DNA from: Octopus vulgaris
Taxonomy: Eukaryota
Length of the DNA stretch: 64,000 bases
Direction of reading: 5' to 3'
Assembly (NCBI GenBank): GCA_951406725.2
Contig: OX597827.1
Span: 41,788,001 to 41,852,000, forward strand
Position 1 is the stretch's first letter, and each line of letters begins with the position of its first letter. The notes under the pieces are model-generated. The model was not told the DNA's origin and did not search any database. It worked only from the letters and a program-made list of their open reading frames with translations. Positions 7,340 through 52,544 of the stretch are shown piece by piece. The translations under genes were made by a program, and so were the position numbers.

Positions 7340-7340
<1 letters not shown>

Positions 7341-8049
7341 CTCGTAGGATGAGTTCCTGGATCTTAAGAACTTTCCGGTCCAGAGAACTTTTTTCCTCCT
7401 TTGTACGGCCACACCTTGAATACTGCTGCCCACTGTGGTCTCCTCACACAAGACAAAACATCTCCAGAATTGAGTCACCCCAGAGGGCTCTCACTAAACA
7501 AATTGAAGGCATGGCTGCTCTCGATTATTGGGATCGCCTTAAAGCCTTGAAACTTTACTCCCTCCAGCGTCGCCGTGAGCGGTACATCATTTGTACGATG
7601 TGGAAAATATACCGCCAACTTTGCCCAAACGACCTAAACATCAGCTTCAATGTTCATCCAAGACTTGGACCACGGGCTATACGTCCCCTGCCAAATTCAA
7701 GATCACAACATACATGTACACTGCAACATAATTTCTTCTCCTCAACAGGTCCTGCCCTATTTAACATTGTCCCGAGGGAGATCAAAGAGGAAAAGGATCC
7801 CATCAACTTCAAACAGAGTCTGGATAGATTCCTTCAAAGAATACCAGATAAGCCACCCATAATTGGATGCAACTCACCTAACAAGAACTCACTACTTGAA
7901 CAAAACTGGATACAACTCACCCAACAAGAACTCACTACTTGAACAAAACTTGACTTAAACAGGATTCGAATAATCCTATCAGGTGGTGCTATTAAGTTAG
8001 ACATGGCCTGGACCAATCTCTGGTCGAAACATATCTAAGTTTTATCTAA

Positions 8050-8052
<3 letters not shown>
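7340..8052 (+). mobile_element. CR1/L2-group LINE 3' end
   Basis: ORF 7349-7942 VRPHLEYCCPLWSPH...DYWDRLKALKLYSLQRRRERY; ends in tatctaagtt x2; (TA)n on both sides. Confidence 0.8.
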
Positions 8053-8101
<49 letters not shown>

Positions 8102-8214
8102 TGTGCATATATGTACGTATGTATGTATGTATGTATGTATGTATGTATGTATGTATGTATGTATGTATGTATGTATGTATGTATGTATGTATGTATGTAT
8201 GTATGTATCAATCA

Positions 8215-8311
<97 letters not shown>

Positions 8312-8459
8312 AAAGAGTGTACATTAAAACACAAGAGAAAACTGCCTTCAACAGGTAGTTTTTACACGCTAGAAGAAGTAGTCAAAACGACCAAAACCAC
8401 ATTTAAGAGCAATCTTCAAAAGGAACGAAAAATAAAACTTTTACCTTGTTATTTAAATC

Positions 8460-8533
8460 CGGTCAGACCTTGATTTCTAATTTTTTTTAGCAAATAACAT
8501 AATTTGCTAGGCGAAAGTTTTCATCAGTGACCG
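8460..8533 (-). ncRNA. Type I hammerhead, left arm
   Basis: CGGTCA-CTGATGA-...TAGCAAAT/ATTTGCTA...-GAAA-TCAAGG-TC-TGACCG; 6-bp stem I, GUC site; base of stem II and stem III weakened. Confidence 0.7.
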
Positions 8534-8732
8534 CGCCATAACACTAACTTATAATTAAGAGACGACTAACACGTGTCTCTTCATTATACATTATAAAACT
8601 TTTATTAGTTCGGCAGTCATTCATTTACTGACGAGTGATACTGCCCTCGCGCGGTGAATTTGAAAAATTATAATATATAACGAAGAGACACGTGTTAATC
8701 GTCGATTAATTATATGGTAGTGTTATAGCACG

Positions 8733-8802
8733 GTCACTGATGAAAAATTTCGCCTAGCAAATTATTTTATTTGCTAAAAACATTTTGAAACCTAGGTCTG
8801 AC
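8733..8802 (+). ncRNA. Type I hammerhead, right arm
   Basis: GTCA-CTGATGA(8737-8743)-AAAAT...ATTTT-GAAA(8787-8790)-CCTAGG-TC-TGAC; canonical core, GUC, cleavage predicted after C8798. Confidence 0.82.
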
Positions 8803-9036
8803 AGGAATAAAATAACAAGGTAAAATATTTTATTTTTCATTCCTTTTGAAGATTGCTCTTAAATGTCGTTTTGGACGTTTTGACTACTTCTTCTAGCGTG
8901 TAAAAACTGCCTGTTGAAGGCAGTTTTCTCTTGTGTTTAAATGTACATTATTTTATATTTGAGAATATGTTGTCTATTGACTTTTTTATACATGTTAGCC
9001 CCTGGTGGTGAATTTTAAAAAAATCTCACCACCCTA

Positions 9037-9109
<73 letters not shown>

Positions 9110-9160
9110 GTCTGTCTATCGATATGTATATATATATATACAAATATATGCCAGTGTATA

Positions 9161-23499: not shown

Positions 23500-24130
23500 A
23501 AGTAGATCCGTTTTATCATCAAAAAATTGGGATTTCGGATTTGACCGAATTATATGATGTGGTTGATCGGAGCGGCGGTGGAGGTAAATGTGAGATAACG
23601 AGGGCTTGCAAAATAACTCTGTTACCATTTTGCCTCCCGAAAACTTAACTTTTGTGTCCAAAAATTCAACGCAAGCTTTTGAAAAAAACTTGACGTAAAT
23701 TTTATGTCGGACTTAAAGTCATAGGTTTATCATAACAGTTGCAGAAATTCAAGAAGTCAATTAAATTATCTTGTGATCCTTCCCAGACATAAAAGATGTC
23801 ATCAATGATCCGTAACCAGAGTATTGGTTCATGACCATGTAGGGATTTGAATGTCTTCAGTAACTGTGTCTTGAATTTCATCATGAAGACATTAGCGAAA
23901 TTAACTGCCATGGGGGTACCCATGATGCATCTGGCGGTAAAAGTTTTGTCCAAACTTCATAGTGTTACTTTGTAACACAAACCTTAATAACCTACAAAGA
24001 AAATTTGATAGAATATACTTTTGTTTGACTTTTTTCGGAAGGCATTCATTCATGCTTCTACCCCTTCATCGCGGCCAATATTGGGATATAAGGAAGAAAC
24101 TTACATGGTTACCAAAAAACAGTTTTCGAC
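23500..24130 (-). pseudogene. Penelope-like RT fragment
   Basis: MGTPMAVNFANVFM...WLRIIDDIFYVW; YLHRRSDQPHHIIRSNPKSQF. Confidence 0.8.
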
Positions 24131-24139
24131 GTTGCCTCG

Positions 24140-24880
24140 TTGCTTCAAAAAGTTGTTGATTTTAGACACACAATCAAAATTATCCTGAATATAGGAACTT
24201 GAACTCTTTGCGACAGGCAGTAGAAAGCCATCCAGCCATTCCGAAATCTTGACTGTAAAACATTTATATCCACTGCAAATTTACCTGCACTGTCGTTCCG
24301 ATCAGCCACATCATATAATTCGGTCAAATCCGAAATCTCAATTTTTGAGGATAAAACAGATTTGTACTGATATAGGGGATTACTGGAAACATGCAAATGC
24401 TTTTGTCCCCTATTATGTCAAACACAGTTACAGTGAATGACAATTAAAGGAAATAACAAATGAAATAACTAAGATTAGCAAGGAAAGTCAACCTAGCAAA
24501 AAAAAAAAAAAAAAGCCCCCACGAGTAATTTTAGCAAACACAGTACAATATATACGATGTGACAGAATTCCTTTAGTGATTAACTGGCACCGAAATTCCG
24601 CTGGCATTTCAAAAGGGTTTTATGAAAGCTACCAGCATGTTGCAGGAAAATATCCTCGTTTCAAACAGATATTTCCTCAGCCGCCTATTGTAGCCATTAG
24701 ATGAAATAAAAATATAAAAGAACATTTAAAGAAAATTAATAATGGTGTATCTGCACGCTGTATCTTGAAAAAAAAAAAACAGCCGCAAGAGAGGTAAGCT
24801 CTGTTCATTGTGCAACAATATGACTCAAGTGAATTCCATCAGGAATCATAACAGAAATATTATAATTTGTACAGAAGTTC
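24140..24880 (+). pseudogene. Penelope-like RT thumb/linker fragment, opposite orientation
   Basis: YLHCRSDQPHHIIRSNPKSQFLRIKQICT, then RIPLVI and IFPQPPIVA-like linker motifs. Confidence 0.72.
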
Positions 24881-31874: not shown

Positions 31875-34143
31875 AGAGAGTATTAGTGCGTAAGATTGGT
31901 CTGGACGTGCGTATGTATGGGGTTGGTGTATGTATTAGTACGTATTGGTATGTATAGGTGTGTGTGTGTGTGTGTGAGAGAGTATAAGTGCGTATGCGGG
32001 GTCTGGACGTGTGTATGTATAGGGTTGGTGTAAGTATTAGTATGTACTAGTATGTATTAGTACGTATTAGTATGTATTAGTTGGTGTGTGTATTAGTATG
32101 GCACATCATATGTGATGTGATGTGTAAAGTCATGTGGTGTAGTGAGGAGAAGAGGGGGAGGGGGAGAAGAGGGGGGAAAAGGGGAGGGGAAGAAGAGGGG
32201 AGGAGAAGGGGGGAGAGGAGAGGATGGGGGAGAAGGAAGGGGATGAGGGGGATGAAGGAGGAAAGAGGGAGAGGGGGAGAGAGAAGGGGAGAGAGGGAGT
32301 GAGGGAGCAGAGGGAAGGGGAACAGGGAGGGAGAAAGAGGGAAGAAGGGAAGGGGAGTAGGGGTGAAAGGATGAAGGACTGAAGAAGTAGGGGTCGGGGG
32401 AGAAAGGATAGGTGAGGAGGGGGGAGAGGGGGTTAGATGAGGAGGGGGGAGAGTTGAGACCAAATGGCGTATAAGAGCGAAGAGAGAAGATTAATTCCTG
32501 TTCACGGCGCAAACGGGAATCCGGATGGCCTCTGTGTAAGGACAAACCGAACACAGATAGGTGTTGCAAGGAGTGACCGGTGGAGCGGAAATGGCGTGAG
32601 ATCGGTGTGTCGTTCGCAAGGTGGATGTCACGAAGGTGTTCCGCGAACCGGTCAGCCAAGCGGCGTCCCGTTTGTCCGATGTACAAGGAATTGCAGAGAG
32701 AGCAAGAGAGGCAATAGATAATATTGCTGGAGGTGCAGGTGAAGGAGTGGATGATGGGATAGGGTCGATGGTGGGTGCTAGTGAGGCGGGTGGTGTTGGA
32801 GAGGTAAGGGCAAGTGCGGCAACGTGGGCGGGAGCAGGGGAACGAGCCGGGTTGGGAGGTAGGGTCAGGGAAGGAGCTATGGACCAAAAGGTCTCGAAGG
32901 TTGTGGGCTCGTTTGAAAGAGGGGAGGGGTCGGTTAGGGAAGAGGTGTGAAGTGGACGGGTCGGACTGGAGATGACGGAAAGCTCGAAGAATGGTGCGTT
33001 GGAGACGTAGGGTCGTGGGGTGGTAAGTGAGGGGAAAAGGGAGGCGGGAGACTACAGGGCGGGTTCGGGGAGAGAGAGCAGAAACACGGTCCACGGACCG
33101 TGCTCTGGCAAGGGCGGTGTGGATAGTGGTGAGGGGGGTATCCACGTAGGGTGAAGTGGTGAGCCATACGTTGAGACTGAGTCTCAAAGTCATGGTCGTC
33201 ACTACAGAGCCTACGTAGACGGAGGAATTGGGAATAGGGGATGGAAAGCTTGGTGTGTTCTGGGTGGGAGGAAGAGAAGTTGAGGTATGAGTGTGAGTCT
33301 GTGTGTTTGTAGTGAATGGAGGTGGTAAGAGTGGAGTGAAGAATGCTAACCGAAATGTCGAGGAAGGAGACAGAGGTGTTGGAGATAGTGGAAGTGAAGT
33401 GGAGGGCTGGATGGAAAGATTGGACGAAAGAGAGGAAGGAATCTAGATGTTCGCGGGAGAGTGAGGTGGCACCGATAATGTCGTCAATATAACGACCATA
33501 TAGTTCAGGAGTGGGACCAGTGAAATTAGAGAATATTTGGGCCTCAACATAGCCAACGAACAGGTTCGCATAGTTGGGGCCCATTCGCGTTCCCATGGCC
33601 ACTCCCGAGACCTGATGGTAGAACTCGCCCGCGAACGAGAAGCAGTTCAGAGTAAGGACAAGTTCGGCCAGAGTGTGGAGGTGTCAGGTACAGGGTTAGA
33701 GCGGAGGTCAAGAAAGTGTCGAAGGGCCTGCAGTCCTTCCTGGTGAGGGATAACAGTATAGAGGCTTTGGATGTCCATAGTAAAAAGGATTTTGGAGGAG
33801 CCGGGAGGAAAGGAGAAAGAGTTGAAAAGCCGGAGAGCATGGTTGGTATCGTGGATGTGGGAGGGAAGAGATGCCACTAGGTGGGCAAGGACACGGTCGA
33901 GGTATTTAGAGATGAGCTCCGTGGGGCAGTTACAGGCGGAGACGATGGGGCGGCCAGGGTTGTTGGGTTTGTGGATTTTGGGGAGGAAGTAAATGGTGGG
34001 GGTACGTGGGGTTCGCACAATTAGGTTGGATGCAGTGCGGGGGAGACGGGAGGACGAGATGAGGTCTTGGACAGTAGAGGATACCGTCTGTTGGTAGCTA
34101 CGTGTGGGGTTAGAGGGCAGAGGGGAATAGAAGGAGGTGTCAT
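31468..34143 (-). mobile_element. Penelope-like retroelement (RT + GIY-YIG), 5'-truncated, frameshifted
   Basis: YFLPKIHK..GRPIVS, MDIQSLYT, AMGTRMGPNYANLF, RYIDDI, IIYCLSCSLCNSLYIGQTGRRLADRFAEH; (TA)n at both ends. Confidence 0.95.
31567..31604 (-). ncRNA. Minimal hammerhead-like motif with A6U core
   Basis: TCTTT-CTGTTGA-A-GAGC gtag GCTC-GAAA-CG-TT-AAAGA in the element's 3' terminal region. Confidence 0.62.
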
Positions 34144-50993: not shown

Positions 50994-52110
50994 ACATACA
51001 TCACCTACATATATATAATGCATGCGTGTGCATGCCACGTATGTGTGCGGTCAATGCCTGCTAGTGTGTCCTATGCGTGCCGATGCGCGCATGTGCCCGC
51101 CCGCGCGATATGCTGTGAGCGTGCGCGCGTCCCTGTGTGCTTGCTCTGGATGTGCTTCCAGGGGGTATGTTAGAGTATGTTTAGTTGTGGTCTGTATTTT
51201 TGAATAAGATTACTTTCCTTATTTATTCGTGTTTGGTCTGTGGTGTTGTCCGAGCATTGGTATAGTGGGAAGACTAAGAATTTGGGGGACTTATTGTGTG
51301 CACAAAGGTCTAAGTGTCCACTTAGTGGTATCTGTCTTGTGGAGGGGTCCCTCAGTTGTTGTCGGTGAACTGTCATTCTGTCTCTGAGGGTAAGGCTCGT
51401 TTGCCCTATGTAGTCTTCGTGGCATCCTTCACACCTTATGACGTAGAGTAAATTTTTTGATGCGCACGTGAAGTTATTTTTTATGATGAATGTGTGTCCC
51501 GAGTGGAACTTGTACGACGATCCCTCAATGAGGTGGATGCAGGTCTTACAGTTGGGGCGACCACATTTTTTGATGGTGGGCGGTGGGTTTGTGTTGTGTA
51601 ATTTTGCGTTGGTGAGGAGGTTTTTTAGGGATTTAGGTTGTCTCTTACTTTTTATTATTTTATGAGCTGCCAGTATTTTTTCAGGCGTGGGTCTTGATTT
51701 AGTTGTGGAATGTTGTTGTATATAATAGTGTAAGCTTCTGCATTCCTTGGGTTGTGTGTTGAGAGATAAGGAGGCTATTGACTGTACTGTGGATATGTTT
51801 GGGTTTTCGAAGGTCTTGAATGTTGATTGATTTGGCCCGTTCTATTCCGTTGTCTACTAGTGATGCCGGGTAATGTCTTTCGAGAAGAATTGCCCTTAGT
51901 TCCCGGAGTCTTCTATTTCGTGTTGTGTCATTTGAGACAATAGTGCAGATTCTTCTCGCTAGGTTGAAGGGGATATTTGTCTTTGTGTGTTTTGGGTGAT
52001 TGGAGGTGAATAGAAGGTATTGTTTAGAGTCAGTGGGTTTGTAATGGATGTCAGTTTCAATGTTGACGCCTTTTTTAATGATTAGGATGTCAAGAAAAGG
52101 GAGTTGGTCC

Positions 52111-52544
52111 ATGGATTTTTTGTACATCTCAGAATATTTTAAGTATGTTTTTACTGACCTGTCAGTATTAGCAGAAAGGCTGAACTGAGAGAACAGAAGA
52201 AGTAGCCAATGTGGTGTATACTTCCCCTTTATGCATGAATGATTTTGGGGTTATCAGGAGGTTAGTATGCGGGTGTGAATAGATGTGTCCGTGCCTGCTG
52301 GTCAGACAGCGTCTGTTTGTCAGGACCGGTCCTGACAAACAGACGCTGTCTGACCAGCAGGCACGGACACATCTATTCACACCCGCATACTAACCTCCTG
52401 ATAACCCCAAAATCATTCATGCATAAAGGGGAAGTATACACCACATTGGCTACTTCTTCTGTTCTCTCAGTTCAGCCTTTCTGCTAATACTGACAGGTCA
52501 GTAAAAACATACTTAAAATATTCTGAGATGTACAAAAAATCCAT
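52111..52544. repeat. Perfect 434-bp palindrome, no spacer
   Basis: Centre 52327/52328 (caggacc|ggtcctg); ORF track gives the identical 70-aa peptide on both strands. Confidence 0.95.

Follow-up and report, generated by a model that had tools for sequence, protein, structure and literature searches.

A foldback of non-coding DNA whose two arms each carry a hammerhead ribozyme motif raises the question of whether the foldback is itself a two-ribozyme element, as an initial annotation had proposed, or whether its symmetry arose through the insertion of something simpler. The locus lies in a 64-kb stretch of DNA (G000:C14:41788001-41852000, hereafter the window), and the genome searched spans 2.8 Gb. 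The element is an ageing, decaying copy of a common, dispersed, non-coding hammerhead repeat of ~470 bp, and its mirror-image arm is likely to be an ordinary by-product of Penelope-like insertion, not a new two-ribozyme element.

The inverted arms occupy positions 8307-8596 and 8668-8958 of the window and are 90% identical over 291 aligned bases (86-93% complementary in ungapped pieces), in keeping with the ~285-bp arms first described. Mapped onto the repeat unit, the left arm (8307-8596, minus strand) is an inverted, 5'-truncated copy spanning unit positions 97 to ~387, ending at the 'short' 3' end of the family and 94% identical to the family reference. It is joined head to head, through a 7-base filler (8597-8603) absent from every other locus examined, to a near-complete copy (8604-9040, plus strand; unit 33-467) that ends at the 'long' 3' end of the family and is 94.5% identical to the reference. 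The 'spacer' of the initial annotation (8604-8667, plus strand) is by unit mapping the unit's own 5' part beyond the reach of the inverted copy, and includes a hairpin at 8610-8634. A AAAACTGCCT/AGGCAGTTTT hairpin (8903-8927, plus strand) belongs to the unit and is mirrored at 8338-8362, and the ~80-base tail between the two fixed 3' ends of the family (8959-9040, plus strand) is carried by a single arm and contains a GGTGGTGA/TCACCACC hairpin at 9004-9033. Every hairpin previously reported, including the inner one of the ribozymes, is present in the sequence. No stop-to-stop frame of at least 40 aa occurs inside the element, in keeping with the earlier remark that no credible ORF is present, and the frames that touch it are microsatellite read-throughs.

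The reported (TATC)n setting is likewise confirmed, with (TATG)n grading into (TATC)n on the left (8118-8311) and (TATC)n in the same orientation on the right (9037-9120). Since both flanks are (TATC)n, a target-site duplication is unreadable at the element. An open frame fragment without a Pfam match (7340-8056, plus strand) lies 300 bp to the left of the element; a 43-bp duplication and TATCTAAGTTT repeats come after it. The fragment looks like the C terminus of a LINE protein of CR1/L2 type. Downstream of the plus-strand cut site, a GT..AG intron-like stretch (8820-8896, plus strand; AAG-GTAAAA ... TTCTAG-C) is predicted from sequence, and 37 of the family's 56 ribozyme contexts contain its donor-like motif. 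No matching spliced joint was found among the 15 joints listed, out of 33, from assembled contig sets, nor any precise spliced copy lacking the predicted intron in the locus maps of the family. Four such contig sets yielded family-level pieces at 85% likeness, and contigs of this kind cannot show RNA ends.

When the whole 64 kb was searched on either strand for type I hammerhead motifs, exactly two matches emerged (plus 8731 and minus 8533), the outward-facing pair already described. The Rfam scan of the window, which had been suggested as a check, gave no match at the gathering threshold. The plus-arm motif (8733-8802) contains CTGATGA at 8737-8743, GAAA at 8787-8790 and a 2-bp, palindromic stem III, CCTAGG, at 8791-8796 followed by TC, with a predicted cut at 8798/8799; it has all the parts of the type I hammerhead found in Penelope-like elements (PLEs), namely CUGANGA, GAAA, a UH core, stems I and II and a palindromic stem III. 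The left-arm motif (8460-8533, minus strand; CTGATGA from 8527; predicted cut at 8466/8465) has an intact core, carries an A-A mismatch at the foot of stem II and has lost the palindrome (TCAAGG). Both predicted cuts, derived from the motifs, agree with the RNA 5' ends forecast at 8799 (plus) and 8465 (minus).

The initial annotation had also remarked that the arms have diverged and that both keep the ribozyme core, which is correct for the core; the implied selection is not seen. Between the arms, 7 of 70 positions differ within the ribozyme and 18 of 209 outside it, so that the ribozyme drifts like the remainder of the window's copy. Across 59 ribozyme-spanning arms of inserted copies, the 12-base core is kept in 35, the palindrome in 24 and both in 15. 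Selection on the ribozyme after insertion was considered and rejected: core positions mismatch at 39 of 677 (5.8%) against 1811 of 22910 (7.9%) at non-CpG, non-core sites, a difference given no weight because some loci were chosen by a core-containing pattern. A different picture emerges between subfamilies, where stem I changes in step, and this covariation points to a ribozyme under selection in the source copies. Among 56 distinct ribozyme contexts, stem II is GAAC/GTTC in 9 and GAAA/TTTT or AAAA/TTTA in 11 each, while 32 have CCTAGG as stem III.

In contexts of 131-136 nt the probability of the active monomer fold was at most 0.01 for either arm, which is weak evidence because ViennaRNA, with which it was calculated, does not model the ribozyme core. 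The folding model bears out the earlier suggestion of a ribozyme buried in read-through RNA, with 61 of 71 ribozyme positions predicted to pair with the other arm. RNA started at the centre would carry a lone motif with a short stem III, which is expected to cut poorly in the absence of another copy, and the window's two motifs lie on opposite strands; no in vitro cleavage by a single minimal hammerhead motif is reported in PMC4209133.

A whole-element genome search returned 141 matches from the best 40 of 2595 candidates. Most of them cover only 8604-9036 of the window, and the family is therefore a single ~470-bp unit. Where it forms head-to-tail partial repeats, a short link connects its tail with its start. 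Architecture was scored in 84 non-redundant main-subfamily loci drawn from 134 locus records, leaving out same-place repeats, records with a longest match below 84% and three segmental duplicates; L085 and L114 were both kept although their flanks are shared. As the best 40 candidates were scored per search, the sample favours long, well-kept copies. An outward-facing inverted copy occurs in 50 of the 84 loci and an inward-facing one in none; the head-to-tail link, absent from the window's own copy, occurs in 30. The outer ends are strongly clustered, with 49 of 135 at unit positions 380-396 and 48 at 465-468 (97 at the two fixed sites) and 38 elsewhere, and 31 of the 50 inverted loci combine one long with one short end, as in the window. 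TA or TATC repeats lie within 40 nt of a fixed end in 75 of 88 cases, a count made without a random-site control in a microsatellite-rich genome. The whole-element search was biased toward two-arm copies, so a tail-only query supplied a sample not chosen for two arms: it gave 23 new loci, of which 17 are inverted and one carries both ribozymes. Inverted partial copies with ever-different junctions are thus the usual form of the family, and the reading of the palindrome as the element is not supported.

No complete same-strand dimer was found among the mapped main-subfamily loci, and L114 alone has two same-strand motifs, by local duplication. Segmental duplications sharing a family insertion and its flanks lie at G000:C18:17.61-17.77 Mb (L085, L086, L087, L114) and C8:86.29/86.49 Mb (L103, L104). 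A sister subfamily (L154, L155, L182, L214-L243; best 40 of 1825 candidates) is ~75-86% like the window's unit, closes stem II at its base with the canonical G-C pair, shows the same two ends and inverted forms as the main subfamily and includes one likely tandem dimer (L230). A different non-coding hammerhead unit at L045:430-1020 (minus strand) has a ~466-bp period; its stem III palindrome is CTCGAG, and its tail region is 75-86% like that of the 470-bp family. L156, L157, L163, L171 and L183 are unrelated hammerhead repeats, with stem III CCTAGG in common but not the unit.

The element itself lacks the ORF with telomerase-like RT and GIY-YIG that characterises an autonomous PLE. Penelope-like RT/GIY-YIG ORFs are abundant in the genome (6136 GIY-YIG candidates, of which the best 150 were scored and 39 loci read), including a 781-aa ORF with RVT_1 and GIY-YIG, and in none of the 39 loci read does the family unit lie downstream of the ORF. 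Penelope-like protein matches close to family copies were found at 0 of 74, 1 of 60, 0 of 30 and 1 of 14 loci in overlapping sets, and no linked autonomous partner appeared among the loci with the exact core-plus-CCTAGG pattern (47 matches) or in the sister-subfamily search. GIY-YIG fragments ~300 bp from a copy at L204 and L256 were rejected as partners, lying on the 3' side beyond the microsatellite. With no coding partner found, the element is likely a non-autonomous, retrozyme-like derivative, and as no autonomous element with a shared end was found in the loci searched, the source of its enzymes is inferred. This supports the earlier description of a non-coding, likely non-autonomous, ribozyme-bearing element related to Penelope pLTRs and retrozymes.

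The 781-aa family has a hammerhead of its own kind downstream of the ORF, a minimal U3-A8 variant (TTGATAA ... GAAA CATG TA) seen in 14 of the 39 loci scanned (L053:2662, plus; L115:5377, plus; and 12 more GIY-YIG loci); this core variant is known from Schistosoma elements (PMC4209133). A second frame of 333-378 aa without a Pfam match (L115:1244-2242, L116:1287-2420) lies upstream of the 781-aa frame and overlaps its start, and may represent either a separate upstream ORF or an N-terminus split off by an intron. Broken Penelope-like RT/GIY-YIG fragments also occur in the window at 51173-52115, 32567-34099 and 23530-24292 (all minus strand), unlinked to the element.

In an alternative reading, the unit is no separate non-autonomous family at all, but the pLTR remnant of a heavily 5'-truncated autonomous PLE. 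Most Penelope-like hammerheads are reported, in PMC4209133, as single truncated remnants, and the coverage of our searches (the best 40 candidates per search; 39 loci read and 150 scored of 6136) leaves some room for such an element. In 30 of 84 loci, however, the unit's start is preceded by its own tail, always with the same short connecting sequence, and never by an ORF; the short-link search gave 574 candidates, of which the best 40 were scored. Together with the 39 GIY-YIG loci that lack the unit, this makes the truncated-remnant reading unlikely, and we retain that of a non-autonomous family.

It has also been proposed that the two-arm palindrome is a mobile or selected unit, transcribed from its centre to expose two ribozymes. 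A search with a query across the window's junction was matched through at one other locus, at 79% (best 40 of 164 candidates), and there both the junction sequence and the subfamily are unlike those of the window, so the sought-for copies with the same spacer and ends did not appear. The 50 head-to-head junctions are scattered across the whole unit, and only four pairs lie within 5 nt of each other, one with shared flanks (a segmental duplicate) and three without. The case for a mobile palindrome draws on three loci whose junctions are close in unit coordinates, the window (33,97), L002 (34,93) and L006 (25,91), on the 12 of 84 loci with ribozyme-spanning arms on both strands, and on the oppositely oriented promoter motifs described in other pLTRs (PMC3846280). 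Yet the three junction sequences all differ, L002 carries its tail on the arm opposite to the window's, and L002 and L006 fall in another tree branch than the window's arms, from which their own arms differ by 10-13%, as do any two loci (mean 11.8%), with 1-3 shared variants. Nor is the ribozyme extra-conserved between the window's arms, one of which has lost its stem III palindrome, and an outward-facing pair occurs at just one locus among the 47 genome-wide matches to the exact core-plus-CCTAGG pattern, some of which come from other families (reversed control, 0). Unlinked copies with a common centre and both ends, the mark of a mobile two-arm palindrome, were not found among the loci examined. 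The initial annotation had named a unique two-arm junction between ordinary single arms as the outcome that would speak against it, and this is the outcome obtained. We regard the palindrome as a mobile unit as already largely refuted and give it very little chance. An elaboration of the same idea is equally doubtful: long two-ribozyme foldbacks might be functional, sending RNA outward from the centre in both directions, with the two same-sense RNAs forming an active trans-dimer hammerhead through stem III, and re-seeding new copies, while long read-through dsRNA would silence the family. Re-seeding of this kind would account for junctions clustering around unit positions 25-34/91-97.

The kinship of the arms was examined in a tree of 52 arms, in which seven two-arm loci are represented by both arms. 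Arms of the same locus are sisters with strong support in three of the seven (L006, L024, L107) and with weak support in one to two more, L002 among them; left arms form no clade. In several loci the two arms share 8-18 private variants, compared with a mean of 1.45 between loci. The window's own arms, each ~5% from the family centre, share none, as is also the case at L034, so that a common template RNA is not demonstrated for the window locus; the same absence speaks against gene conversion between its arms. It is scarcely credible that the inverted arm is a later addition, whether from foldback repair at the DNA level or from an independent second copy landing in the first. The missing private variants at the window and L034 would suit such an origin, but every one of the 50 inverted loci faces outward, inverted and direct arms end at the same two sites, and the arms of several other loci share far more private variants than those of different loci do.

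We therefore hold, with good confidence, that the window contains a decaying copy of the 470-bp hammerhead repeat, probably inserted by borrowed Penelope-like enzymes that built an inverted, truncated second copy. The observations underlying this model are the unit, its many copies, the two fixed 3' ends, variable junctions, partial tandems, microsatellite flanks and even decay, and the family displays several features of Penelope-type architecture: variable head-to-head inverted copies, two fixed 3' ends with a one-sided tail, partial tandems and AT-rich microsatellite targets. A Penelope-like RT/GIY-YIG protein would act in trans and bind the unit RNA, by extension from in vitro work on another element (PMC11167929), would cut both strands of AT-rich DNA and would start cDNA synthesis from one or the other of two internal sites. 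Both new DNA strands would then grow inward and be joined wherever synthesis halts, giving outward-pointing arms, one with the tail and one without; if both arms extended past the ribozyme, two opposite-strand hammerheads would result. The ribozyme would matter in source copies only, where two hammerheads on a tandem RNA may pair with each other by way of their stem III palindromes. For the Poseidon element PAc of the green anole, both strands of AT-rich DNA are cut and extended, two internal RT start sites match the genomic tail, and the ribozyme depends on the protein for cleavage and is dispensable for insertion in vitro (Frangieh et al. 2024, PMC11167929). Self-priming is proposed as an alternative route by Arkhipova et al. 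2013 (PMC3846280). Counted against the insertion model are the lack of a linked coding element, the ~80-bp tail, the zero private variants shared by the window's arms and the unreadable duplication.

This is a new family of a known kind, with an arrangement already in print, and the window copy is one of many decayed copies. A literature search found no paper on the 470-bp family, which may be catalogued in Repbase or Dfam. The family is of modest interest in that a protein-free 470-bp hammerhead unit displays the entire Penelope-type insertion signature of two fixed ends, tail, inverted copies and partial tandems. The short unit RNA would be a handy in vitro template for testing Penelope-driven retrozyme movement, and the many junctions of the family are a natural data set on the still unexplained formation of inverted copies.

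Among known systems, the family resembles endonuclease-bearing PLEs. Craig et al. 2021 (PMC8557442) describe their insertions as including partial tandems, an inverted copy that is 5'-truncated and adjoins the 5' end, a one-end tail and a microsatellite bias, alongside non-autonomous elements with pLTRs. Partial tandems, the head-to-head inverted truncated copy, the one-sided tail and microsatellite targets are all shared with canonical PLE insertions as presented there and in PMC3846280. The 470-bp unit differs from these in having no ORF inside or adjoining it, no readable target-site duplication and a tail of ~80 bp instead of the 30-40 bp given in PMC8557442. Pairs of minimal hammerheads with a palindromic stem III, one motif on each strand and ~100-700 bp between them, were reported in 2014 (PMC4209133), and the family's motifs are like those of that study in their 4-5 bp stem I, long stem II and palindromic stem III/loop 3. 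Unlike them, the window subfamily has lost the G10.1-C11.1 pair, there called highly conserved and retained by the sister subfamily, and its stem II is interrupted by an internal loop and contains an inner hairpin of 8 bp.

Non-LTR retrozymes are defined as tandem units by Cervera and de la Pena 2020 (PMC7229834), and at least two consecutive complete same-strand units with hammerheads, the strict form, do not occur in the window. The family shares with animal non-LTR retrozymes, as there described, an AT-rich unit that is non-coding and a few hundred bases long, one type I hammerhead and head-to-tail joins, and differs in its slightly longer unit (~470 bp against 170-400 nt) and in the dominance of inverted and tailed forms, known here from DNA. 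Li et al. (bioRxiv 10.64898/2026.07.22.740005) argue that retrozymes derive from PLEs as non-autonomous elements, and the family fits the recent proposal, from vertebrate phylogeny, that Penelope-like enzymes move animal retrozymes. With PAc it shares two fixed 3' ends bracketing a tail, an AC-rich hairpin nearby and AT-rich targets, and its two ends, known here from sequence, fit two RT start sites as in that element (PMC11167929); PAc is autonomous and has its ribozyme over the start codon, whereas the 470-bp unit has no ORF. Taken together, the element likely works like a non-autonomous PLE, and not like an autonomous PLE, a strict tandem retrozyme or a two-arm mobile palindrome.
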